12,079 nt of DNA, from UHGV virus genome UHGV-0141735; one strand, 5' to 3'. The position numbers and the translations under genes were made by a program. Numbering within the stretch: the stretch's first letter is position 1; each line of letters opens with the position of its first letter. Under the pieces are notes generated by a model. It worked only from the letters and a program-made list of their open reading frames with translations, was not told the DNA's origin and did not search any database. Of this stretch, positions 50 to 12,079 are shown one piece after another. Source of the stretch: a virus.

Positions 50-1285
50 TTACGTGTGCAGTGTATGTTCGATTTTTTGATGTTTGAATAACCGATCAAC
101 CAATAATTCAAGTTTGTGAAAATCTGTAAGAGGATATAGCTTCACGATGTCTTCCTCAAAATTCGCTATACCTGATAATTTTTCTTTTTTTCGTAAGTAA
201 TCGATGGCAATTCTTTGTTCATTCGATATCTCAAACTGATTTTGATAATCTAAGGTTTTAAGTACTTGCCAAGACATAGGGGCTGTAAATTCGAAGTAAG
301 AAGCTAGTTTTGGACAAAAATCATATTGAATAGATTGCTTATAGGTTGCTTTAGGTGGTAATACAACATTAACAGAATATTTACTGCTCCTAGAATTCGG
401 CATTTTTGTAGAGTAATATGCTATCCCCGCTATTGGTGATTTAACCCGACGACCGATCCACTGCATTAATAAATTTGGGATTATATATTCAGGTGTGAAT
501 GATGAATTTTCTACGCGTTTTAAATAATTGCAAGCGATTAGTAATGGCCAGAATATCAAGTATGATGCTTTTGTTCTGTTTTCATCATATATTTTATTTT
601 CATCAACAGTTTTTTTAATTGGAAGTGAAAGGTGAGGAGAAGCAAAATTTAAAATTGTTGAATTTACATCGTTTGTAACGAAGGATGATATATATAATTT
701 ATCAAAATCTGGCTTTCCCATCTCTTGCCAACATACGTACAAGGATGTACCGAGATATAAGCAGGGTTGGCCTGCGACTGAATATCTTTGAGCATTCACT
801 AAATGTCTTTTTGAAAACGGAATATGAAATATTTGGTTGTGCTCAATCAAAGGGGTTTCTGATTTTCTGACCCGATAAAGTGGCTTTTCCTTATTGCAAA
901 AATCTTTTAGCAAGATACTAATTCGATTTAGTTGGGCTATTGTTGCCTCCTTTGACATAATGTCATCGAAAATGTCATATGCTTTTTTAATATCTCCAGA
1001 CAAAAACTCCTCTAGAGTTTTTTGTATGCACTTATGAATATTTGCAACTCGTCCTTTTAGAACTCTAAGTTCCCTACCGCATCCATTCATGTCTGCTTTT
1101 ATTGATTCATCAATTAAAGTCATATAAATTTTACATCGATTAGAAAAATCACTGGCTATATCGCCTTTAATGTTGAATGGTGGATTTAATTCTTCATGGC
1201 TCAATAGTCGCTCAAGAAAGTGATCAATCCAGAGTGCATTTTTCTTTTCTGATTCTAATTGAGTACTGGATTTTTTTTCGTCCAT
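50..1285 (-). CDS. Hypothetical AT-rich cargo protein (411 aa) with a central RES-like (Arg-Glu-Ser, NAD+-targeting toxin-type) region; function unproven
   Basis: Intact 411-codon ORF. Its ATG (1283-1285 on the minus strand) lies 4 nt downstream of the int stop, same orientation. Sample 60-nt lines count about 27-30% GC by hand, against about 60% in a gpA line. Motifs LYRVRK, then QRYSVAGQPCLYLGTSLYVCWQE, then AYYSTK...SVNVVLPP resemble the RES-domain core pattern (R ... G.P.LY.s.s...A..E ... S). Pattern-level only. Confidence 0.6.
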   Translation of the reverse strand: MDEKKSSTQLESEKKNALWIDHFLERLLSHEELNPPFNIKGDIASDFSNRCKIYMTLIDESIKADMNGCGRELRVLKGRVANIHKCIQKTLEEFLSGDIKKAYDIFDDIMSKEATIAQLNRISILLKDFCNKEKPLYRVRKSETPLIEHNQIFHIPFSKRHLVNAQRYSVAGQPCLYLGTSLYVCWQEMGKPDFDKLYISSFVTNDVNSTILNFASPHLSLPIKKTVDENKIYDENRTKASYLIFWPLLIACNYLKRVENSSFTPEYIIPNLLMQWIGRRVKSPIAGIAYYSTKMPNSRSSKYSVNVVLPPKATYKQSIQYDFCPKLASYFEFTAPMSWQVLKTLDYQNQFEISNEQRIAIDYLRKKEKLSGIANFEEDIVKLYPLTDFHKLELLVDRLFKHQKIEHTLHT

Positions 1286-1289
1286 GTTT

Positions 1290-2306
1290 TCACTCTATAT
1301 AGTTTAAAGGATTTTTAGTTACCGCATCCTCCAGATGATCTGGAGAAAAGTGCGCATAAATCATGGTCATTTTTATATCGGCATGGCCTAAAATTTCTTT
1401 AAGCACAAGTATGTTTCCTCCGTTCATCATAAAATGGCTGGCGAATGTATGACGTAATACATGGGTGCATTGACCCTCAGGAAGCTCAATATCGGCCCGC
1501 TTTACTGCACGCTCAAAGGCTTTTCTGCATGGTGAGAATAACTTCCCTCGATTTTTAGGAAGTTCGTTGTACAGATCCTGAGATATTGGCACGGTACGGT
1601 TTTTCTTGCCCTTCGTCTTGGTATAAGTGATGCGGTATTTGGATAATTGATGGCCCTGCAGATTTTCTGCTTCACTCCACCGTGCGCCAGTAGCTAGGCA
1701 TATTTTTGCAATCATTAGTAAGCTAGGGCTTTGAGATTCAGCACATGCCGCCAACAGGCGCTTGATTTCGTCCGTGGAAAGAAAAGCCAGCTCACCTTCG
1801 GCAATTTTGAAGGTCGGAAGTCCTGCCAGCGGGTTTGGTGCTGACCAGTGTCCTAGTTTTTTTAATGTACCGAACACCGATGATAGATTGCGCTGTTCAA
1901 GGTTTACCGTGCGGGGCTTAACGGGCGACATAAGCGTGCCATCTTCATTTCGTATTTCACCTTTTAACCGTGCTTCGCGGTATTTCGTAAAGTCTCCGGC
2001 TGTCAGTTCTGAGGCGATGGGGTCGCCTAGGCCATTACAGATAATTCTAAGTTTCGCCATGAGGCGCTTGGGGTCTGCGAGTGTCTGACCATACAGGGAA
2101 TACCAAAGCTCAATTAATTCTGATAGGCGTCGCCGATCATCCTTTTCACCCAACCACGGTTTTTTATTCACTTCTTCCATTGTGAAGCTTTCAAACGCAA
2201 TGGCTTCGCCTTTCGTGGCAAATTGCTTACGCACGCGCTTGCCATTGCGTCCATTGGGATAGCACTCGCACAACCATTTTCCGTTCGGCTGTTTTCTGAT
2301 GGTCAT
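1290..2306 (-). CDS. int: Tyrosine recombinase / phage integrase, P2/186 Int family
   Basis: 338 aa. C-terminal catalytic signature HVLRHTFASHFMMNGGNILVLKEILGHADIKMTMIYAHF (HxxR ... Y nucleophile), an upstream TGARWSEA box, and N-terminal GRNGKRVRKQF...AFE typical of P2-type Int. Its start is 1 nt from the repressor stop, the C-int operon layout. Confidence 0.95.
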   Translation of the reverse strand: MTIRKQPNGKWLCECYPNGRNGKRVRKQFATKGEAIAFESFTMEEVNKKPWLGEKDDRRRLSELIELWYSLYGQTLADPKRLMAKLRIICNGLGDPIASELTAGDFTKYREARLKGEIRNEDGTLMSPVKPRTVNLEQRNLSSVFGTLKKLGHWSAPNPLAGLPTFKIAEGELAFLSTDEIKRLLAACAESQSPSLLMIAKICLATGARWSEAENLQGHQLSKYRITYTKTKGKKNRTVPISQDLYNELPKNRGKLFSPCRKAFERAVKRADIELPEGQCTHVLRHTFASHFMMNGGNILVLKEILGHADIKMTMIYAHFSPDHLEDAVTKNPLNYIE

Positions 2307-2307
2307 A

Positions 2308-2940
2308 TCAAAGGCTCTTAATGATTTTCAGTGCGCGGCCTACTACCTCAATGTCATCCAGACCGCACTCAAACGATGAATCATCCTGATGCACTACTAA
2401 TTTGTTTCCCGGGAGTCGTGTCAATTTAACAATGCTTTTTATCCCGTCGATGTCCACTAACCACATACCATTTACTGGTGGTGTTTGGTTGCGATCTATT
2501 AAATAAGAATCACCAGAAGTAGTCACCAGCAGCAGGTTGCTTGAATCTGAGGGGAGTATGCTGCTATCAATGATTGCTTTTCCCGCATCGATCAATAAAC
2601 CACCGTTGAGAGTCGCCTTGTCAATTTCAGGAGATACTAGTTCAGAAAGAGGTACAACCTTGCTGGAGTTCACGGAATTGATATTTTTTTTAGGTTCAAT
2701 GTTTGGACCTGGCTCCCCCTGTCCGGTGGTTAGCCACAGTAAAGAAACTCCTGTTTCCAAGGCGCACTGAATCACCCACTCTGCAGGAAAACTATCTCTT
2801 AAGTATCTGTTTGCCATGGTGCTTTTTGATGCGCCTAAGTGATCGCAAAGTTGCTGTCTGGACTTGAAATCATAGGCTGCCATTAGTCTATGGATAGCCT
2901 CTCTTCCCCCTGTATTCTCTCCAACCTTTACCTGTATCAT
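2308..2940 (-). CDS. cI: Phage CI-type immunity repressor (N-terminal HTH, C-terminal oligomerisation/regulatory domain)
   Basis: 210 aa. Transcribed leftward from the early control region directly into int. N-terminus (RLMAAYDFKSRQQLCDHLGASKSTMANRYLR) looks like a phage CI-repressor HTH. The position matches 186 cI / P2 C. Confidence 0.8.
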   Translation of the reverse strand: MIQVKVGENTGGREAIHRLMAAYDFKSRQQLCDHLGASKSTMANRYLRDSFPAEWVIQCALETGVSLLWLTTGQGEPGPNIEPKKNINSVNSSKVVPLSELVSPEIDKATLNGGLLIDAGKAIIDSSILPSDSSNLLLVTTSGDSYLIDRNQTPPVNGMWLVDIDGIKSIVKLTRLPGNKLVVHQDDSSFECGLDDIEVVGRALKIIKSL

Positions 2941-2952
2941 TTTTTAATCCTG

Positions 2953-2981
2953 TTGACGTATCAAATATTGGATCGTAGTAT
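2953..2981 (+). promoter_or_regulatory. Candidate rightward early (lytic) promoter: -35 TTGACG (2953-2958), 17-bp spacer, -10 TAGTAT (2976-2981)
   Basis: Sigma70-like hexamers with 17-bp spacing, about 80 bp upstream of the first rightward gene (3060) and just upstream of the repressor start. Position is equivalent to pR/Pe of 186/P2. Confidence 0.45.
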
Positions 2982-3000
2982 CTCGATGTATCAAATATTG
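2958..3000. promoter_or_regulatory. Two identical 13-bp direct repeats GTATCAAATATTG (2958-2970 and 2988-3000) flanking the candidate -10; putative repressor operators
   Basis: Exact 13-bp direct repeat, 30 bp centre to centre, bracketing the -10 hexamer. P2-type C repressors are known to bind direct repeats flanking the early promoter -10. Confidence 0.45.
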
Positions 3001-3059
3001 AATCAAGTAAAACGAGATAAAACGACGTAAACCAAACCTTAATCGGGAGATACTGCACT

Positions 3060-3302
3060 ATGAGCACTGATATTTCAATTCGTGTACCAAAAGAGATGGC
3101 TACGCCTGCAGAGTTCGCGGAATGGGAAGGTATCTCCCGCGGCTCTGTGTATCAAAAAATTCACCATGGTCAGCTTGCTAAATACATGGTCAAGAAAGAA
3201 AAAAACAAAGGCCGCGTAAGCCTGCGTTATTTAATGTACAAAACCGATCAGGTCCGTGAATCCCTCGGTCATTCCAACTTCCGCGTCATTGTTGGTAAGT
3301 AA
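3060..3302 (+). CDS. Small DNA-binding regulator, Apl/Cox-like (excisionase / early-switch protein) by position
   Basis: 80 aa, first gene of the rightward operon opposite the repressor, as apl in 186 and cox in P2. Basic C-terminus, possible HTH (GISRGSVYQKIHHGQ). Positional inference. Confidence 0.55.
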   Translation: MSTDISIRVPKEMATPAEFAEWEGISRGSVYQKIHHGQLAKYMVKKEKNKGRVSLRYLMYKTDQVRESLGHSNFRVIVGK

Positions 3303-3334
3303 GTTCAATTATGAGAACTTTCTAAGGGGGTAGC

Positions 3335-3844
3335 ATGTTTGATTATAAGATTTCCAAACACCCGCATTTTGATGAAGCCTGTAGAGCTTTTGCACTTCGT
3401 CACAATATGGCGAAGCTGGCAGAACGTGCAGGAATGAATGTCCAGACTCTGCGAAACAAACTCAACCCAGATCAACCGCATCAGCTCAATGCGCCAGATA
3501 TCTGGCTACTTACCGATCTGACGGAAGATTCAACGCTGGTAGACGGTTTTCTGGCACAGATTCACTGCCTGCCATGTGTACCGATTAATGAGGTGGCAAA
3601 AGAGAAACTGCCACATTACGTCATGAGTGCAACCGCAGAGATCGGGCGTGTTGCTGCAGGTGCGGTATCTGGCGATGTAAAAACCAGTGCAGGTCGTCGT
3701 GATGCTATCAGCAGCATTAACTCTGTTACACGACTGATGGCGTTAGCTGCTGTTTCATTGCAGGCCCGTTTACAGGTTAATCCTGCGATGGCAAGTGCAG
3801 TTGATACTGTAACTGGCCTCGGTGCTTCATTCGGTTTGCTGTGA
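3335..3844 (+). CDS. cII: CII-like transcriptional activator (186 CII family)
   Basis: 169 aa. Strong RBS (AAGGGGG) 6 nt upstream. HTH-like segment NMAKLAERAGMNVQTLRNKLN. Position (second gene of early operon) and length match 186 CII as recalled from memory. Confidence 0.65.
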   Translation: MFDYKISKHPHFDEACRAFALRHNMAKLAERAGMNVQTLRNKLNPDQPHQLNAPDIWLLTDLTEDSTLVDGFLAQIHCLPCVPINEVAKEKLPHYVMSATAEIGRVAAGAVSGDVKTSAGRRDAISSINSVTRLMALAAVSLQARLQVNPAMASAVDTVTGLGASFGLL

Positions 3845-3851
3845 GGTGCTT

Positions 3852-4052
3852 ATGCTGACGAAAGAACCATCATTTGCATCGCTGCTGGTAAAACAAAGTC
3901 CGGCAATGCACTACGGTCACGGCTGGATCATGGGTGAGGATGGTAAACGCTGGCATCCGTGCCGTTCACAAGATGAATTGCTGGCAGAACTATCTACGAA
4001 AAAACGGGGGAACAAATGGCTATTGAAGGCGCTGCGGCGACTGTTCCATTAA
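3852..4052 (+). CDS. Small early protein of unknown function (positional equivalent of 186 fil / P2 orf78)
   Basis: ATG at 3852 preceded by GAGG 5 nt upstream, 8 nt after the cII stop. The longer ORF-track version starts at a GTG inside cII and is less likely. Confidence 0.45.
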   Translation: MLTKEPSFASLLVKQSPAMHYGHGWIMGEDGKRWHPCRSQDELLAELSTKKRGNKWLLKALRRLFH

Positions 4053-4357
4053 GCCCCGGTGAACGCCTGAATGGACTTAATCACATAGCGGAATTAAGGG
4101 CGAAAGTTTTTGGCCTGAATATTGAGTCAGAGCTTGAGCGGTTTATTAAAGATATGCGTGATCCACGGGATATCAATAACGAACAAAATAAACGAGCACT
4201 GGCAGCCATATTCTTTATGGCAAAAATTCCGGCTGAACGTCATAGCATCAGCATCAATGAGCTGACCACTGACGAAAAGCGGGAGTTGATTAAAGCAATG
4301 AATCATTTTCGTGCAGTGGTGAGCTTATTTCCCAGACGGCTAACCATGCCGAATTAA
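4016..4357 (+). CDS. Hypothetical early protein (113 aa)
   Basis: ORF with GGGGGA RBS 4 nt upstream of ATG 4016. Overlaps the previous small ORF by 37 nt. No recognisable motifs. Confidence 0.45.
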   Translation: MAIEGAAATVPLSPGERLNGLNHIAELRAKVFGLNIESELERFIKDMRDPRDINNEQNKRALAAIFFMAKIPAERHSISINELTTDEKRELIKAMNHFRAVVSLFPRRLTMPN

Positions 4358-4424
4358 CCAACTAATGAAATTAATGGCGTAAACCCGCCGGGCATCCCTT
4401 TATCTAAATTCAGGAGAATTGATT

Positions 4425-4658
4425 ATGCGTAATATTGAAATCCTCACGACTAAAACCGGACCGGATGATGCTGGGCTTAATATTTTACTGACAGAGGCTC
4501 GTCTGGAAGAACGCCGGGCAAGGGCTGAAGCAATGGCAGCTCGCCTTGATAGCCTGGCGTGTCATATCTCATCCCGTCAGCTAAACCACGTGGAAGCGGC
4601 AGAACTGCTGCGTGTGACTGCTGAAGCAATCCAGAACGAAGCGCAGGAGATCCACTAA
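4425..4658 (+). CDS. Hypothetical early protein (77 aa, Arg/Ala/Glu-rich, likely coiled coil)
   Basis: AGGAG RBS 8 nt upstream of ATG 4425. Its stop overlaps the start of the next gene (TAATG). Confidence 0.5.
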   Translation: MRNIEILTTKTGPDDAGLNILLTEARLEERRARAEAMAARLDSLACHISSRQLNHVEAAELLRVTAEAIQNEAQEIH

Positions 4659-4885
4659 TGGCTGATGCAATGGATCTCGTACAGCAGCGCGTTGAAGAAG
4701 AACGCCAGCGCCATATCCGTGCTGCCCGTGCCAAAACACCGGGCGTGTCTCGCGTGCTTTGCATTGAGTGTGAAGCGCCAATTCCGCCAGCACGCCGCCG
4801 TGCCATTCCGGGTGTGCAGCTTTGCATTACCTGCCAGGAAATTGCAGAGCTGAAAGGCAAACATTACAACGGAGGTGCTGTATGA
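4658..4885 (+). CDS. TraR/DksA-family C4 zinc-finger protein
   Basis: 75 aa with CIECEAPIPPARRRAIPGVQLCITCQ (CxxC-x17-CxxC), as in TraR/DksA-like small proteins common in P2-like early operons. Start and stop are overlap-coupled with neighbours. Confidence 0.75.
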   Translation: MADAMDLVQQRVEEERQRHIRAARAKTPGVSRVLCIECEAPIPPARRRAIPGVQLCITCQEIAELKGKHYNGGAV

Positions 4886-5736
4886 GCACCATCCTGAAAT
4901 GGGCGGGAAATAAAACCGCCATTATGTCCGAACTGAAAAAACACCTTCCTGCTGGCCCGCGACTGGTTGAACCTTTCGCGGGTTCCTGTGCAGTGATGAT
5001 GGAGACGGATTACCCCAGCTATCTGGTTGCGGATATTAATCCTGATTTAATCAACCTCTATAAAAAGGTTGCCGCTGATTGTGAATCGTTTATATCTCGC
5101 GCCAGAGTTTTATTTGAGAACGCAAACAGGGAGATGGATTATTACAACATAAGGCAGGAGTTTAATTACTCAACTGAAATTACTGATTTCATGAAAGCGG
5201 TATATTTCCTGTATCTCAATCGTCACGGTTACCGTGGTTTATGCCGCTATAACAAGAGCGGGCATTTCAACATTCCCTACGGTAATTATAAAAATCCGTA
5301 TTTCCCTGAAAAAGAAATTCGCGCATTTGCAGAAAAAGCCCAGCGGGCAACGTTTATCTGCGCCAGCTTTGATGAAACGCTGGCGATGTTGAAAGCGGGG
5401 GATGTGGTGTATTGCGATCCGCCGTATGACGGTACGTTTTCCGGCTATCACACTGATGGTTTCACTGAAGATGACCAGTATCACCTGGCATCCGTTCTTG
5501 AACATCGAGCATCTGAAGGACATCCGGTCATTGTTTCTAACAGTGACACGTCTTTGACCCGGTCTCTTTATCGTAATTTCACTCACCACTACATCAGGGC
5601 GAAACGCAGCATCGGCGTTGCAGCGGGGGAGGGAAAATTTGCAACAGAGATGATTGCCACTAAATCTGCTAATTGGTTTAGTGCCGATTTTAGTAGGGGA
5701 CGTGACTCTACTGTTATTTTCGGGGTGCAAGTGTGA
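4882..5736 (+). CDS. dam: DNA adenine methyltransferase (Dam family, GATC N6-adenine MTase)
   Basis: N-terminal LKWAGNK...LVEPFAGS (AdoMet-binding motif), [19 protein letters not shown], and catalytic VYCDPPY; near-collinear with E. coli Dam. True start is ATG 4882 (GGAGGTG RBS, ATGA overlap with upstream stop), not the longer 4822 ORF. Confidence 0.95.
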
Positions 5737-6563
5737 AAGAAATGCACCACGGAATTCATCATTTCCATGGGACGCCTGTCTGGGGAAGTGCTGGCGACGT
5801 TCATCGTATTGCGGTGAGCGGAGCTGGTGCTTTCGTCTCCTATGTACGACCAGATCAGATTGCGGCGTCCATTCAGCACGCTCAGGTCGTCGGCATTGAT
5901 AACGGCGCATTTTCTGCATGGGTGCGTGGGCTAAAAATTAACTGGAGTGATTTTTATAAATGGCTCCTGAACTATTACCACCATCCTAAGGTCGCTTTTT
6001 TTGTCATTCCTGATGTTGTGGACGGAGGTGAACGTGACAATGATGCCCTGATAAACGAAGTTCCGAAAATGTTCTACGGGAAGGCAACTCCCGTCTGGCA
6101 TCTGCACGAGTCAATCGATCGGCTTATCGAGCTATGTCGTGAATGGCCTCGTGTCTGCTTTGGATCGTCTGGTGAATATGCGGCTATTAGAACTGCGCAC
6201 TGGCATCGTCGTATGCAGGACGCTTTTGAAGCAATTTATTGCCGACACAATTTCAAAACAGCTGTTCATGGTTTGCGCATGCTTGACGGTCGTGTGTTGG
6301 GAAATTACCCACTGGCGACTGCCGACAGTACAAATCTTGCCTGCAATGTCCCCAAATTTAATAGCAAATATCCTGAGCTTACGCGGGCTATTCAGGAGGC
6401 TGAGTATTCGCGCAATCTGACGGAAAAGGAGCTGAAAGCTGTCATTCTGAAAAACCGTTGCGCAATTTTAAAAGGTGCAATTGAAGCTGTTCGCCCACCT
6501 TCAGTTTCTGACTGGCTGTCGAATGGTTTGCAGCCTTCACAGCTCGAACTGGAGATTGCGTAA
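5733..6563 (+). CDS. Conserved hypothetical protein (276 aa); possible TGT/DpdA-like DNA-modification enzyme (speculative)
   Basis: Start (GTG 5733 or ATG 5742) overlaps the dam stop and its stop overlaps the gpA start (TAATG), so it is translationally coupled inside the early operon. [12 protein letters not shown] resembles the DSGGFQ catalytic-Asp motif of tRNA-guanine transglycosylase-fold proteins, but the Cys/His zinc site is not evident. Confidence 0.6.
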
Positions 6564-8935
6564 TGAACTACAGCTATTCCTGGAATGCTGAGAAAAAAGC
6601 AATCAATCCTTACGTAGAGACAGAAGAGCAATCTTCAGTTTCTGCGCTTTCAAACCTGATCACTCTGTACGCTGTCGATAACGAGCAGGAACAACTGCGT
6701 CGCGAGGCACTGAGTGATCAGGTCTGGGAGCGTTATTTCTTTAATGAATCCCGTGATCCTGTCCAACGCGAAATGGAGCAGGATAAGCTCATTAGTCGGG
6801 CAAAGCTGGCGCATGAGCAGCAGCGTTTTAATCCGGATATGGTCATTCTGGCGGACGTCAACGCCCAGCCTTCCCATATCAGCAAGCCGCTGATGCAACG
6901 TATTGAATACTTCAGCAGCCTGGGCAGGCCAAAGGCTTATTCCCGCTATTTGCGTGAGACGATTAAGCCATGTCTGGAACGGCTGGAGCATGTACGCGAC
7001 AGTCAGCTATCCACTTCTTTTCGCTTTATTGCGAGCCATGAAGGGCTGGACGGCCTGCTGATCCTGCCTGAAATGAGTCAGGATCAGGTGAAACGCCTGT
7101 CCACCCTGGTAGCTGCGCATATGAGCATGTGCCTTGATGCCGCTTGTGGTGATTTGTACGCCACCGATGATGTTAAGCCAGAAGAAATCCGCAAGACATG
7201 GGAAAAGGTGGCAGCGGAAACCCTGCGTCTGGATGTCATCCCGCCTGCGTTTGAGCAACTCCGCCGGAAAAGAAACCGCCGTAAACCCGTGCCCTATGAA
7301 CTCATTCCGGGTTCGCTGGCGCGTATGTTGTGCGCTGACTGGTGGTACCGGAAATTATGGAAGATGCGTTGCGAATGGCGGGAAGAGCAGTTGCGTGCTG
7401 TCTGCCTTGTCAGCAAAAAAGCATCTCCCTATGTCAGCTATGAAGCCGTGATGCATAAACGTGAGCAGCGCCGTAAGTCGCTGGAGTTTTTCCGTTCTCA
7501 TGAACTGGTGAACGAAGACGGCGACACGCTGGACATGGAGGATGTGGTAAACGCCAGCAGCAGCAACCCTGCGCATCGCCGCAATGAGATGATGGCCTGT
7601 GTTAAAGGTCTGGAGCTTATCGCGGAAATGCGTGGCGACTGCGCCGTTTTCTACACCATCACCTGTCCGTCACGTTTCCATTCCACGCTAAATAACGGCA
7701 GGCCCAACCCGACCTGGACAAATGCGACGGTAAGACAAAGCAGTGATTATCTGGTCGGCATGTTTGCTGCATTTCGTAAGGCGATGCACAAAGCCGGATT
7801 GCGCTGGTATGGCGTGCGGGTGGCTGAGCCGCATCATGACGGCACAGTTCACTGGCACCTGTTGTGTTTTATGCGCAAAAAAGACCGCCGCGCCATTACT
7901 GCTTTGTTGCGTAAGTTTGCCATTCGTGAAGACTGCGAGGAGCTGGGTAATAACACGGGGCCACGCTTTAAGTCTGAGCTGATAAACCCGCGCAAAGGAA
8001 CGCCGACAAGCTACATCGCGAAATATATCAGCAAGAACATTGACGGGCGTGGTCTGGCTGGCGAGATCAGCAAGGAAACGGGTAAATCTCTGCGTGATAA
8101 CGCTGAATACGTGAATGCCTGGGCGTCTTTGCATCGTGTTCAGCAATTCCGCTTCTTTGGTATTCCGGGACGTCAGGCTTACCGTGAACTTCGCTTGCTG
8201 GCTGGTCAGGCGGCAAGGCAACAGGGTGACAAAAAAGCAGGTGCGCCGGTACTGGATAACCCGCGTCTTGATGCCATTCTGGCTGCTGCTGATGCTGGTT
8301 GTTTTGCCACCTACATCATGAAGCAGGGCGGCGTACTGGTTCCCCGTAAATATCACCTCATCAGAACCGCTTATGAAATCAACGAAGAGCCGACCGCCTA
8401 TGGCGATCACGGTATTCGTATTTATGGCATCTGGTCACCCATTGCAGAGGGCAAGATCTGCACTCATGCAGTGAAGTGGAAAATGGTTCGTAAAGCCGTT
8501 GACGTTCAGGAGGCGGCAGCCGACCAGGGCGCTTGCGCCCCTTGGACTCGTGGCAATAACTGTCCCTTTGCTGAAAATTTGAACCAACAGGAGAAAGATA
8601 AATCAGCTGATGGGGACCCCAGAACGGACATTACCAGCATGGATGACAAGGAGTTGCACGATTACCTGCACAGTATGAGCAAAAAAGAGCGCCGGGAACT
8701 GGCAGCAAGGTTACGCCTGGTGAAACCGAAACGGCGTAAAGACTACAAACAGCGAATTACAGACCATCAGCGACTGCAGCTCGTGTATGAGCTGAAGTCC
8801 AGAGGATTTGATGGCAGCGAGAAAGAGGTCGATTTACTCCTTCGCGGAGGCAGTATTCCGTCAGGAGCAGGCCTGCGTATCTTCTATCGGAACCAGCGTT
8901 TGCAGGAAGATGATCAGTGGCGGAACCTGTATTAA
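6563..8935 (+). CDS. A: Rolling-circle replication initiator endonuclease (P2 gpA family, HUH relaxase-type)
   Basis: 790 aa. HUH motif VHWHLLCF and paired catalytic tyrosines YIAKYISK (YxxKY) in the expected order and spacing. Size and position match P2/186 gene A. Confidence 0.9.
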
Positions 8936-9029
8936 TTACGCGGGTTAACAATTCGTGCTCTTAATAATACCAGGCATATCAGGCTGATGAACGTAAAAAA
9001 ACGTTTTACATCAGTAAGATTATTATATA

Positions 9030-9045
9030 CTGTAAATATAAACAG
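9030..9045. promoter_or_regulatory. LexA (SOS) box CTGTAAATATAAACAG
   Basis: Perfect CTGT-N8-ACAG palindrome, AT-rich centre, flanks TA...TG (tactgtaaatataaacagtg), about 44 bp upstream of ATG 9089. Confidence 0.55.
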
Positions 9046-9088
9046 TGGTTATACATACAGTATTGCGTGTGGTGTCATAGGAGGAAAG

Positions 9089-9277
9089 ATGCAGGACTAT
9101 TTTTTGGAGTCTTTGAAGCTCCAGCGCATTGATTTTTTTCTTAAGCTTGTAGCGGCTAGTGAGTGTAGTGATGAAGAGAAGGGGCTGGCTCTGCAGTGGG
9201 TTTCTGAATTGACTGATGAACTCATGGCAAAAATCAGAACCCACGAATACAACCGCTCAATGGATGTCATCAGCTGA
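9089..9277 (+). CDS. Small hypothetical protein (62 aa), first gene of the SOS-controlled module
   Basis: ATG 9089 with AGGAGG 4-5 nt upstream, downstream of the LexA box. The longer 8987 start would place the LexA box inside the coding region, so the short form is preferred. Confidence 0.4.
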   Translation: MQDYFLESLKLQRIDFFLKLVAASECSDEEKGLALQWVSELTDELMAKIRTHEYNRSMDVIS

Positions 9278-9287
9278 GGTGACTTTT

Positions 9288-9521
9288 ATGCGCATTGAAA
9301 TAATGATCGATAAAGAGCAGAAGATTAGCCAGTCTACCCTAGACGCCCTTGAATCCGAGCTTTACCGCAATCTGCGCCCCCTGTATCCCAAAACGGTAAT
9401 TCGCATTCGCAAAGGTAGCTCTAACGGTGTGGAACTAACCGGACTGCAACTGGACGAAGAAAGAAAACAAGTGATGAAAATTATGCAGAAGGTGTGGGAA
9501 GACGACAGCTGGCTGCATTAA
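9288..9521 (+). CDS. DinI-family protein (186 Tum-like SOS-inducible module)
   Basis: 77 aa, MRIEIMIDKEQ...LDALESELYRNL...KIMQKVWEDDSWLH, collinear with E. coli DinI (MRIEVTIAK...ILQETWESADDWF). GAGGTG RBS 6 nt upstream. Confidence 0.85.
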   Translation: MRIEIMIDKEQKISQSTLDALESELYRNLRPLYPKTVIRIRKGSSNGVELTGLQLDEERKQVMKIMQKVWEDDSWLH

Positions 9522-9656
9522 GAAACGTTGCTGGCGTCTGAACTTGCTTCTGGCGTCAGCAAGGTTGAACAACGAGCCCTTGCGAGGCGTTAGCTCTGTA
9601 GTGCATGTCTATGCCGCATGAGATCGCATGATCGTTTGAGGATCGTTTTTGCTAAG

Positions 9657-9680
9657 GCCCGCCAGAACTGGCGGGCTTTT
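9657..9680 (+). terminator. Rho-independent terminator closing the early/SOS operon
   Basis: GCCCGCCAG / CTGGCGGGC inverted repeat (9-nt arms) followed by TTTT. Confidence 0.55.
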
Positions 9681-9725
9681 GCGTAGATCATGCAGGTGCA
9701 TGAAAACCACTACATAAAGCGGGCA

Positions 9726-9745
9726 GGCGTGGCGGGGATACGAGC
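9726..9745. other. cos-like sequence (P2/186-type cohesive-end site) GGCGTGGCGGGGATACGAGC
   Basis: Matches the first 13 nt of the P2/186 cohesive end as recalled from memory (GGCG[A/T]GGCGGGGA), followed by GCGCGCT as remembered for the P2 left end. Lies between the early region and the portal side, where cos is expected. Confidence 0.45.
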
Positions 9746-9854
9746 GCGCGCTCATGGTTGAATTAATGAAATTATGGTGTTAAATAGGCTAGCTTTTTAA
9801 GTCGTGAATATTCAATTTTTCAACTCATTTTTTTCATAGGGAGGAGTAATTGAC

Positions 9855-10553
9855 ATGGTTATGTTAGTGGATGACTGTCCACGATGTGGATCACAAAAAA
9901 TAGCGTTTGATGTTAATGGGCTGAATTGCACTAGGGTTTACAATGCATTGGGCGGGGGTAAAACATACGAGTACGAGGTCTATTGTGTTTGCCGAGAGTG
10001 TCATAAAACGACAATGTTTCTTTGCAGACCTTTAACGAAAAATAAAAATTTAGATGGCTATAATTGGGAAAGTGGAATATTCGGCTTAAAGGAAGTTGCA
10101 GAGGTTGTTAGGCCTATATCACCGGCAGACTTAGCAGTAGAGGAGCCACCAGAGTTCTTACCTGAGCATATCAATAGTGCATATGAGGAAGGGGCGAAAT
10201 GTTTGGCTATAGGTTGTTATAATGCAGCAGCAACCATGTTTAGGCTTTGCCTTGATTATGCCACAAAAGGACTTCTTCCTGATGGGGAGCAAGGGCCTGC
10301 GCAAAAAATAAGGAGAAGCCTAGGGTTAAGAATGGAGTGGTTATTTGATAATCATCTACTGCCTGAAGCTTTAAGGGAACTAGCTGAATGCGTTAAAGAT
10401 GACGGAAATGATGGAGCGCATGAAGGTATTTTGGATAAAGCTGCTGCTGAGGATCTTGAAGATTTTACCTATCTTTTTTTAGAACGGCTTTACACTGAAC
10501 CTCAACGCCTTATCGAAGCCAAGACAAGGCGTGAACAAAGAAGAAACAAATAA
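9855..10553 (+). CDS. AT-rich cargo protein (232 aa): N-terminal four-Cys zinc ribbon plus acidic all-alpha C-terminal domain; unknown function, defence candidate
   Basis: Strong RBS AGGGAGGAG 8 nt upstream of ATG 9855 and an AT-rich upstream region. CPRCG...CVCRECH zinc ribbon. C-terminal LRELAECVKDDGNDGAHEG motif. Sits between the cos-like site and the portal stop (8-bp gap), convergent with the portal fragment. Confidence 0.75.
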   Translation: MVMLVDDCPRCGSQKIAFDVNGLNCTRVYNALGGGKTYEYEVYCVCRECHKTTMFLCRPLTKNKNLDGYNWESGIFGLKEVAEVVRPISPADLAVEEPPEFLPEHINSAYEEGAKCLAIGCYNAAATMFRLCLDYATKGLLPDGEQGPAQKIRRSLGLRMEWLFDNHLLPEALRELAECVKDDGNDGAHEGILDKAAAEDLEDFTYLFLERLYTEPQRLIEAKTRREQRRNK

Positions 10554-10561
10554 GTTCGGAA

Positions 10562-11200
10562 TTATTCTTCTGAAAGAATATAGGGCGTAAATTTAATCAC
10601 TTCTTCGCCCAGCCAGTCGTTCAGCTCTTGTAGCCTTTTTTGCAAGGGCGTTAATTCATTACGTACAAATACGCGACTGGCCTTCTCCACATCCCCAAAC
10701 CCTCCAACATTATTAGGCATAATCCCCATCATTTGCGGCGGCACGCGGTGCGCAGCCATCATGTCGTCGCGGCTGACATTTTTGATATTCAAAAACTCAT
10801 CCTTCGCCGCGACTTCTGACAATGGGATGATCTGAAGCCCGTCTTTTTTGCCGTTAGGCGAGTACATAAACAGGTTGCGGAAGTTGCCTGGACCTTTGGC
10901 GCTTTTCATCGCATTGCGGAGGTTGTTCACATCCTCCTGGTTTTGCGCGGCATCGGTCATGTACATGATAAAGCCCGCATGACTGCCGTTAATGTAATAC
11001 TTGCGACGGAACAGCGTGGCGGACTCGTTGAGCAGGGCTGACGGAATGGCAGAAAGATAACCGGGCAGGCCGTAGATCTCCTGATTAATATCCGGTTCCA
11101 TCAGATGAAAAATGCTGCCTTTCGTGAACTGATACGGCTGGGTTGTCATACCGTATTGCACAAACCAGTAGGTAACGGTTTTACGACCAGTATTGAACTT
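10562..11200 (-). pseudogene. Q: 5'-truncated portal gene (P2 gpQ family), C-terminal roughly 210 codons retained
   Basis: From about TGRKTVTYWFVQ to the C-terminus (DMMAAHRVPPQMMGIMPNNVGGFGDVEKASRVFVRNELTPLQKRLQELNDWLGEEV) the translation reads as a portal protein. The ORF's N-terminal 45 residues are low-complexity and overlap the ogr start, so the upstream boundary (about 11200) is approximate. Confidence 0.65.
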
Positions 11201-11301
11201 GAAGTGAAAATTGGTGATCTTGAAATGGAATAAATGGTTCTCAATATTGATATTTTGTGTATCATTGCAATGATTCTGATAGCAAAGGTAGGGATCTGGA
11301 T

Positions 11302-11520
11302 ATGATGAATTGTCCAAAGTGTGGTCATGCGGCGCACACAAGGAGCAGTTTTCAAGTAACAGAAAGCACCAAAGAGCGTTACTGCCAGTGCCAAAATATT
11401 AACTGCGGGAGCACTTTTGTTACCCATGAAACAGTGGTCCGGTTTATTGTGACACCTGCAGTGATTGCCACAGCCCCTCCACATCCATTGCCAGGTGGTC
11501 AGGGCCATATGAATTTTTAA
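11302..11520 (+). CDS. ogr: Ogr/Delta-family zinc-finger late-gene transcriptional activator
   Basis: MMNCPKCGHAAHTRSS...KERYCQCQNINCGSTFVTHETVVRFIV...PHPLPGGQ is collinear with P2 Ogr (CxxC-x22-CxC-x4-C). Start at ATG 11302 preferred over the longer 11257 ORF. Confidence 0.9.
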   Translation: MMNCPKCGHAAHTRSSFQVTESTKERYCQCQNINCGSTFVTHETVVRFIVTPAVIATAPPHPLPGGQGHMNF

Positions 11521-11527
11521 GAAAGAG

Positions 11528-11549
11528 AACCTGCTACGGCAGGTTTTTA
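11528..11549 (+). terminator. Hairpin plus T-tract after ogr (AACCTGC-TACG-GCAGGTT-TTTTA)
   Basis: 7-bp stem, 4-nt loop, followed by TTTTTA. The stop of the convergent minus-strand gene lies in the T-tract. Confidence 0.45.
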
Positions 11550-12029
11550 TTCATCTGGGATCTCACCCGTTTCAAGAAAATGTATAAAGCCAGGCTCATC
11601 TATGATGATAGTGCCTTTCATCCTGGCTGCCGATACTTTTGATGGGCCTGCATTGTAACCGCAACAGAGCATCTGAAGGTTTTGGGTTACAGATGTTCTT
11701 ACCGTTAATCCTTGTTCATTCGCCTTATCAACCAACCTTTCTTTATCTGCTTTCTTAAATCCGGTGAAACACACATCGAATGTATTTTTTTTCGGACCTG
11801 ACTGCTTAGTGAGATGTGAGTAGTTTTCGGGGAGGAATGACGCGCATTCCTGAATGGCTTGTTCTTGTGAATCGTATTGTTTAAGAATGCGGTCTTTTCG
11901 GAAGGTTTTTATTCGATCGGTGTTCTTACAAATGCCCTGTATGTGATTTTCGCTATAACTGATGCTCTGTATTGAGTGAACACCGATACGACCATTTGCA
12001 TTGATGTAAACAAAGTGAAGTTCTTCCAT
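11547..12029 (-). CDS. Small BRCT-domain protein (160 aa) with a beta-rich N-terminal domain; unknown function
   Basis: Good SD (AAGAGG) upstream of ATG. C-terminal VCFTGFKKADKERLVDKANEQGLTVRTSVTQNLQMLCCGYNAGPSKVSAARMKGTIIIDEPGFIHFLETGE fits the BRCT pattern (hydrophobic-TG start, central G-G/S-K, C-terminal hydrophobic acidic end). AT-rich relative to the prophage core. Confidence 0.65.
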   Translation of the reverse strand: MEELHFVYINANGRIGVHSIQSISYSENHIQGICKNTDRIKTFRKDRILKQYDSQEQAIQECASFLPENYSHLTKQSGPKKNTFDVCFTGFKKADKERLVDKANEQGLTVRTSVTQNLQMLCCGYNAGPSKVSAARMKGTIIIDEPGFIHFLETGEIPDE

Positions 12030-12079
12030 GTCAAACCTCTTTGCATGATTTCAAGATGGCGACAGGCAAGATGGACGCA

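Follow-up and report, generated by a model that had tools for sequence, protein, structure and literature searches.

A probable defective 186/Fels-2-like prophage whose single late-region deletion ends at a recurrently used TA site

The stretch of DNA analyzed here (the window; 12,079 nt of UHGV virus genome UHGV-0141735) carries a P2-family element related to coliphage 186 and Salmonella Fels-2, in which nearly all of the late genes are missing. Its open reading frames (ORFs) were characterized by ORF listing, Pfam domain scans and PADLOC. The left part of the element encodes, on the minus strand, a full-length tyrosine integrase of 338 amino acids (aa), the same size as the integrase of intact relatives (1290-2306; Int_N, 1e-29; Phage_integrase, 3e-24), and a 210-aa repressor of the 186 CI type (2308-2940; Phage_CI_repr, 5e-31; Phage_CI_C, 6e-28). 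On the plus strand there follow an Apl/Cox-like gene that relatives annotate as Rha family (3060-3302), the gene for CII (3335-3844; Phage_CP76, 4e-43) and genes for Fil, DUF5347, DUF2732, a TraR/DksA zinc finger and a Dam methylase, all with Pfam matches and all full length (3852-5736). The rolling-circle replication endonuclease gpA (6563-8935, plus strand; Phage_GPA, E=3e-127) has 790 aa, as it does in intact relatives, and its gene contains a predicted origin (ori) at about 8590 that is homologous to the annotated P2 nick site. Downstream of gpA, a LexA-box-like sequence that matches the consensus (CTGT-N8-ACAG; 9030, plus strand) precedes a 62-aa ORF (9092-9277) and a DinI-like gene (9288-9521), both on the plus strand. 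The segment 9030-9521 is a putative SOS module, a function assigned from the consensus match only.

The late region is represented by two fragments. The first is the 3' part of the portal gene Q (10562-11174, minus strand; Pfam Phage_portal), 613 nt that comprise about the C-terminal 204 codons. It ends at a joint (11173-11174) where the dinucleotide TA is common to both parental sites, and beyond the joint lies the second fragment, a remnant of about 60 nt from the 3' end of gene D (11175 to about 11235, plus strand). This remnant is 100% identical to the 3' end of genes annotated as phage late control D in many E. coli genomes. The late-gene activator gene ogr/B (11302-11520, plus strand; 72 aa; Ogr_Delta, E=9e-21) is preceded by an intact intergenic region. 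The joint also creates a chimeric ORF of 259 aa (10562-11341, minus strand) in which the portal C-terminus is extended upstream by antisense sequence from both D and ogr; a look-up of its product found no match. Public gene calls begin the portal fragment at an internal ATG (11149), giving 195 aa, and ogr is not called in the public annotation of either of two contigs identical to the window.

Thus, each feature named in an earlier note made from the letters of this DNA alone (integrase, repressor switch, gpA, SOS-inducible module, cos, Ogr and a portal 3' fragment) is present. All remaining genes have the same lengths as in intact relatives, and no frame in the window is decayed. Gene order is identical to that of annotated relatives. 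The element has a gpA with its internal ori, a CI/Apl/CII switch beside a tyrosine integrase, and an att-proximal Ogr/B together with a P2-type cos, as expected of Peduoviridae.

Several accessory genes accompany this core. A gene for a 411-aa protein (50-1285, minus strand) lies between int and attL and, in many relatives, adjoins int inside att. The same slot is occupied in relatives by a dCTP deaminase gene or other defense genes. Neither Pfam nor PADLOC gives a match for the protein; 208 blocks of the assembly collection contain it with its exact sequence, and its gene lies between int and attL in all of them. A second gene without a Pfam or PADLOC match (5742-6563, plus strand; 273 aa) lies between dam and gpA, and its exact product is found in 12,190 blocks of that collection, always in the same interval, making it a very widespread accessory gene of P2/186-like phages. 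A DUF4145 gene (9855-10553, plus strand; Pfam 4.5e-7) occupies the defense hotspot between gpA and portal; its PADLOC match to PD-T7-4 is weak (1e-6), and the same gene is found in an intact relative. Finally, a 160-aa BRCT-like gene (11547-12029, minus strand) lies between ogr and attR. Its Pfam match to BRCT (9e-4) is weak and falls under the curated cut-off, and RefSeq labels the product as a BRCT domain-containing protein.

We assigned the cos-like site to 9726-9744 (plus strand) from its match to the P2 cohesive end and from the end of a phage record. The 19-nt cohesive end, GGCGTGGCGGGGATACGAG, is identical to the annotated cosR of P2 at 14 of 19 bases, and a conserved block upstream of it, AAGCGGGC, is common to the window and P2. 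In addition, the linear GenBank record of Salmonella phage SEN8 terminates exactly at window position 9725. The right third of the cohesive end sets it apart from its P2 and 186 counterparts; this part reads GATACGAG in the window and GAAAGCAC in P2.

The ends of the element lie outside of the window. A direct repeat of 46 nt, the 3' end of ssrA, flanks the prophage of the intact relative NZ_CP070063.1, and the counterpart of the 411-aa gene as well as the BRCT-like gene fall inside the att repeats of intact relatives. The corresponding 46-nt cores fall on either side of the window: attR starts 73 nt past the right end in an identical contig (L014), where it is intact, and an attL core lies 115 nt past the 411-aa gene in two relatives that carry this gene (L006 and L007). 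We infer an element of about 12.3 kb. The earlier note had set its limits at 1290-11520, which is too small, as the genes at 50-1285 and 11547-12029 also belong to it. One of the genomes with an attL core, GCA_020979525.1, contains a P4-like satellite (L006 11591-17018) with integrase, SIR2, DUF87, Psu and Ogr_Delta genes. This satellite is in tandem with a P2-like prophage beyond the same att core, so that helper and satellite share one ssrA locus.

Comparison with intact relatives identifies a single large deletion. The window is 90-97% identical in nucleotide sequence to hundreds of E. coli prophages and isolated phages, including Cartapus, RE-2010 and the Klebsiella Kp48xx series, and nearly all of these matches end at 11174. 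NZ_CP070063.1 contains both arms, beside ssrA, with a full Q P O N M L ... D set between them. The collinear alignment to it has a single gap of 20,957 bp, from inside the portal gene Q to inside the tail gene D, and the only other difference is in the content of the cargo cassettes. The Q'/'D joint at 11173/11174 has a 2-bp TA overlap, found in both parental sequences, and the window reads ...CCAGTAGG-TA-ACGGTTTT... across it. To the left, the segment from cos to the portal fragment is 99.2% identical to an intact prophage (L001) through 11174; to the right, positions 11173-12079 are 100% identical to the D 3' end, ogr and the BRCT-domain gene of intact prophages in at least 8 genomes. The missing interval extends from about codon 140 of Q to the last 20 or so codons of D and includes the genes for terminase, scaffold, capsid, lysis, baseplate, fibers, invertase, sheath, tube and tape measure. 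Of the complete P2-type morphogenetic and lysis set, only the Q and D fragments remain. The loss is smaller than the 25-30 kb that had been supposed from the letters, and the portal fragment, correctly recognized there, is not the only late-gene survivor. At 9594-9601 the window has TCTGTA in place of a 958-bp two-gene cassette found in L001 between the DinI-like gene and cos. The same variant is found in two other prophages (L036 and L045) and in E. coli H2, which indicates a polymorphism of cargo cassettes and not decay.

The joint is very unlikely to be an assembly artefact or chimera. We sought carriers of the window structure by exact-protein look-up of the truncated portal product and found the joint in a 111-kb SPAdes contig from ENA and in Logan contigs of another run (L014 and L016). 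A mis-join in a de Bruijn graph is not possible from a 2-bp overlap, and analogous joints are present in complete and isolate genomes.

The arrangement itself is not recurrent. Over 11,518 nt, L014 and L016 match the window with 100% identity, and the carriers are thus the same clone. No joint-spanning match was found in 5,426 complete E. coli genomes, and a 28-mer over the joint had no match in 185,579 species-representative genomes (GTDB) or in the JGI metagenome collection. A composite query of the left and right arms found only two genomes with ogr near an early region, E. coli ET734 (L002) and 503440 (L003). Both proved to be tandem double lysogens of related ssrA prophages, in which D, ogr and BRCT of one are followed by cargo, int and CI of the other. 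These prophages have several frameshifted genes each, and that in L003 also has IS100 in gpA.

Other late-gene-deleted relatives have no common set of retained genes, their endpoints differ, and some lack ogr. For example, the derivative in KL53 has an O'/'D joint and retains the portal (Q) and terminase (P) genes, that in strain 300709 lacks D and ogr but still has parts of O, E and T, and those in S3 and H2 retain tail genes. Three more (L008, L009 and L025) have different endpoints and contents again. Thus, the expectation that the same early-region-plus-ogr arrangement would recur across genomes was not borne out: the joint is found only in contigs identical to the window, and the other derivatives differ in content. 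The earlier note had held that uniqueness to one genome together with further decay of the frames would speak against its satellite proposal. The first is what we see, in the form of one clone, but the second is not, as all frames are intact.

What recurs is the breakpoint. We refer to the portal endpoint of the window (L001 23754/5, window 11173/4) as Q1. At least seven distinct deletions end there with a TA overlap and differing right-hand partners: that of the window and those of L015, L032, L033/L045, L035, L036 and L049, several of them in diverged lineages. For example, L015 belongs to another phage lineage, with an early region 95-96% identical and an integrase gene 81% identical to those of the window, and its portal gene is cut at the same nucleotide and fused to the gene X region, where the overlap is once more TA. 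The seventh Q1 joint, to a tail-fiber gene, came from a fusion in a protein collection (...APGG/TYWFVQYG...). We also performed anchored scans, in which the portal-side 19-mer is followed by any base except the intact one. In IMG/VR, the Q1 scan gave five portal matches, one of them an intact variant and four of them new deletions that also end at Q1 and have as partners an invertase gene, the tape measure gene T, D and the BRCT-like gene. As controls, we scanned in the same way from four further TA dinucleotides in the part of the portal gene that is retained, including one that lies 4 nt from Q1, and obtained intact variants in every case. Thus, four of five matches at Q1 were junctions, versus none of 88 at the control positions. 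The reciprocal class at Q1, in which the 5' part of the portal gene is kept, gave no matches in a scan of low power, as its anchor is poorly conserved.

Additional sites are also reused. Q2 (L001 23665), 89 nt from Q1, is the endpoint of three deletions (L043, L044 and L047), whose partners are D, T and the sheath gene and whose portal fragment is identical, as is their GmrSD cargo; an anchored scan at Q2 found only synonymous variants of intact portals. A tape-measure site, T-5234 (L001 5233-5234), is used in L033, L045, L049, L078, L080 and L083 with five partners: Q1, a third portal site, the lysis region, cII and position 9652. We set aside nine of the 13 matches in the T-5234 scan as chance 16-mer matches in unrelated contigs. 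The joint of Q1 to T-5234 is present in two prophages that are about 4% diverged on both sides (about 96% identical) and that occupy different att sites. This divergence and the different integration sites point to independent recurrence of the pair, as judged from the flanking sequences, and not to inheritance. In two further cases, crossovers lie 1-2 nt apart: a site in the BRCT gene, CGATAC (L001 1981-1984), is used in L035 and E. coli 300709, and a site in T, AGATAC (L001 5245-5247), is used in L046 and L009.

The preference for TA is not absolute. Among 21 joints that were not ascertained through a TA anchor, the overlap is exactly TA in eight and contains TA in 11; the remaining joints lie at unique positions and show ordinary microhomology of 0-9 nt. 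Portal truncations outside of the hotspot also exist, and the hotspot is therefore a preference and not a rule. Because the recurrence concerns the breakpoint and not the gene content, our findings point to a mutational hotspot rather than to selection for a satellite-like set of genes.

Several known activities could in principle generate deletions with a fixed end, and we find little resemblance to any of them. The P2 nick site of gpA (GCGCCTC/GGAGTCC) and its homologue in the window are unlike any of the TA sites, and we reject cleavage by gpA at pseudo-ori sites. We likewise reject the Hin/Gin-type invertase of the prophage acting at pseudo-sites: its natural crossover site has a TT core, and the hot sites score like random TA positions against its half-site consensus. 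A role of Int at secondary att sites is not supported, as the 46-nt att core has no convincing resemblance to the hot sites and tyrosine recombinases do not typically leave an overlap of 2 bp. There is no IS or transposase at any joint, which argues against IS-adjacent deletion, and a variant in which insertion and deletion are followed by precise excision is without support.

A comparison of the hot sites for shared motifs revealed weak tendencies only (A-TA-C, TATCC on the deleted side, and AGACC near three sites). Many hot sites are in a G-A-TA-C context, and AGACC is within 6 nt of Q1, T-5234/5246 and T-5384. Q1 does not resemble T-5234 in either orientation, and no strong motif is common to the hot sites. 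The string GGATAC, found at several hot sites, is also present inside the cohesive end. This is probably a coincidence, as terminase does not nick at that TA.

By analogy, the exact 2-bp overlap and the reuse of sites resemble the footprint of an enzyme that cuts at TA or exchanges strands there. Independent reuse of one pair of sites suggests an enzyme, encoded by the phage, the host or a third mobile element, or else a structural mark, and not generic microhomology repair. We speculate that a so far undescribed, site-preferring process of breakage and rejoining at TA strips P2/186-like prophages of their lethal late region and turns them into immunity and defense islands. We hold this view tentatively and rate it slightly below an even chance. 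A literature search on TA-junction prophage deletions returned only Tn-seq papers and no description of the hotspot, which is not proof of novelty.

Could the locus instead be a satellite? The earlier note had likened the retained genes to the set kept by a P4-type satellite and had weighed a decayed prophage against an element that a helper could still mobilize. In the latter case, a P2-like helper would lend capsids, tails and terminase, the element would use its own Int/Apl, gpA, Ogr and cos, and cargo would be carried to new hosts. To judge from the sequence, the parts for helper-dependent packaging (cos, replicon, int, ogr and at least attR) are in principle intact, as is apl; the estimated length is near the 11.6 kb of P4; and late-gene deletions that begin within the portal gene arise repeatedly. 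Like P4-type satellites, the element has an integrase and a helper-compatible cos. However, domain scans found no Sid or Psu domain in any window ORF, and neither the P4 alpha primase-helicase nor epsilon, nor any primase or helicase domain, was found in the window ORFs. The sole Ogr-type protein, at 72 aa, is not of the P4 Delta type. A psu-delta-sid module and an alpha/epsilon replicon are thus absent, with a gpA replicon in place of the latter.

Other observations also make a satellite improbable. A conserved architecture that recurs in unrelated genomes, as expected of satellites, is not seen: the joint is limited to one clone, and the deletion derivatives share no gene content, some being without ogr and some having tail genes. 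The divergent flanks of the two Q1 x T-5234 prophages indicate recurrence and not spread. From established P2/P4 biology, a 12-kb genome without the capsid-size determinant Sid would underfill a head of P2 size, such that multimers would be needed, and a homoimmune helper would be repressed by the resident CI. Of the two alternatives in the earlier note, the decayed prophage is thus favored by the single simple deletion and the clonal joint, and the selected satellite is disfavored by the lack of recurrence and of any P4 hallmark. The retention of int, the early region and ogr has a simpler explanation: these genes are located at both extremes of the prophage map, and any deletion that stays within the late region spares them.

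We conclude, with a probability of roughly 85%, that the locus is a recently generated, clonal, defective 186/Fels-2-like (P2-family) prophage at ssrA. A temperate phage of this type integrated into the 3' end of ssrA, and a single illegitimate recombination, probably a recent one, then joined a TA in Q to a TA in D, removing the genes for head, tail, lysis and packaging enzymes. The remaining 12.3 kb or so can no longer produce virions or bring about lysis, and presumably cannot move autonomously, but still encodes CI, the early and replication region and three accessory genes. It might thereby serve the host as a harmless island of immunity and defense. The integrase, early genes, cos and ogr survived by lying outside of the deleted interval and not through selection for the set. 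The deletion belongs to the recurrent class with exact TA junctions that reuses a few preferred sites, of which Q1 is the most used that we found. A single gap, arms that are 99-100% identical to intact prophages and full-length ORFs fit a recent event.

A domesticated island of defense and immunity is a related possibility. Here, selection on the host would keep the remnant for CI-mediated superinfection immunity and for its cargo, which would account for the lack of decay. In line with this, every frame is intact, the deletions that we examined with a start within the portal gene leave the adjacent cargo in place, and cargo is present in both known P2 defense hotspots (gpA-portal and int-att; PMC13586616) as well as between ogr and att. 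Defective P2-like elements with intact defense genes are also common (PMC13586616). However, a very recent deletion predicts intact frames equally well, the defense role of these cargo genes is not established, and the remnant is found in one clone only. We consider such domestication possible but unlikely.

Some points weigh against our conclusion that the locus is a recent, defective prophage. The attL of the source is unseen and the window contains no att site, such that the excision substrate is deduced from relatives only. Intact early genes and cos are equally expected of a selected, mobilizable element. The recency of the deletion comes from sequence identity and is undated. Any anti-phage function of the cargo is putative, with weak PADLOC matches for two of the genes and none for the 411-aa protein. 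Lastly, the hotspot implies that such deletions do not arise through random decay alone.

By itself, this locus is ordinary, one more defective prophage of a well-known family, and the recurrent TA-junction breakpoints, the joint of the window among them, are its only unusual feature. It is also a clean case in which a single deletion makes a P2-like phage non-lethal while immunity and hotspot cargo stay, and may represent the first step of prophage domestication, prior to other decay. The hotspot suggests that particular sites channel part of the inactivation of P2-like prophages. Should an enzyme be at work there, it would add a new determinant of what becomes of prophages and of how defense islands originate, and deletion derivatives would be predictable. 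Our results also call for caution, as recurrence in comparative genomics may stem from mutational bias and not from selection.

The closest known systems are coliphage 186 and Salmonella phages of the Fels-2 type (Peduoviridae). The element has their map (int-cI, then apl-cII-fil-...-dam-A-(tum/DinI)-cos-(cargo)-Q ... D-ogr/B-att), their 186-type CI, CII and Fil domains, a gpA replicon with a P2-like ori and a 19-nt cos. In contrast to them, it lacks the genes from Q to D and hence would produce no particles or lysis. The element also resembles the satellite P4 (11.6 kb; PMC13586616 and established knowledge) in its size of about 12 kb, its integrase, P2-type cos, zinc-finger activator of the Ogr/Delta family and cargo genes, and its lack of structural genes. 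Unlike P4, which has RNA-based immunity, it has gpA replication and a 186-type CI, derives through deletion from the helper lineage itself and has no recurrent conserved architecture.

Defective P2-like prophages that retain intact defense genes have already been described, with "no obvious pattern" in the core genes lost and no report of a breakpoint hotspot (PMC13586616, NAR 2026). The element is like these prophages in that core genes are lost and accessory and defense genes are intact, and unlike them in that it has one clean deletion, no pseudogenes, and an intact cos and entire early and replication region. The deletions at Q1 also recall, by analogy only, fixed-end deletion series such as those at Rep nick sites or adjacent to IS elements, in which one endpoint is fixed to the nucleotide, the other is variable and the overlap is short and constant. 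They differ from such series in that partner sites are reused and in that Q1 is unlike the gpA nick site, the invertase crossover site and the att core. Lastly, E. coli K-12 contains a P2 remnant that consists of ogrK and a gpD fragment, yegZ. Like that remnant, the element in the window retains a fragment of D and ogr next to an att site.

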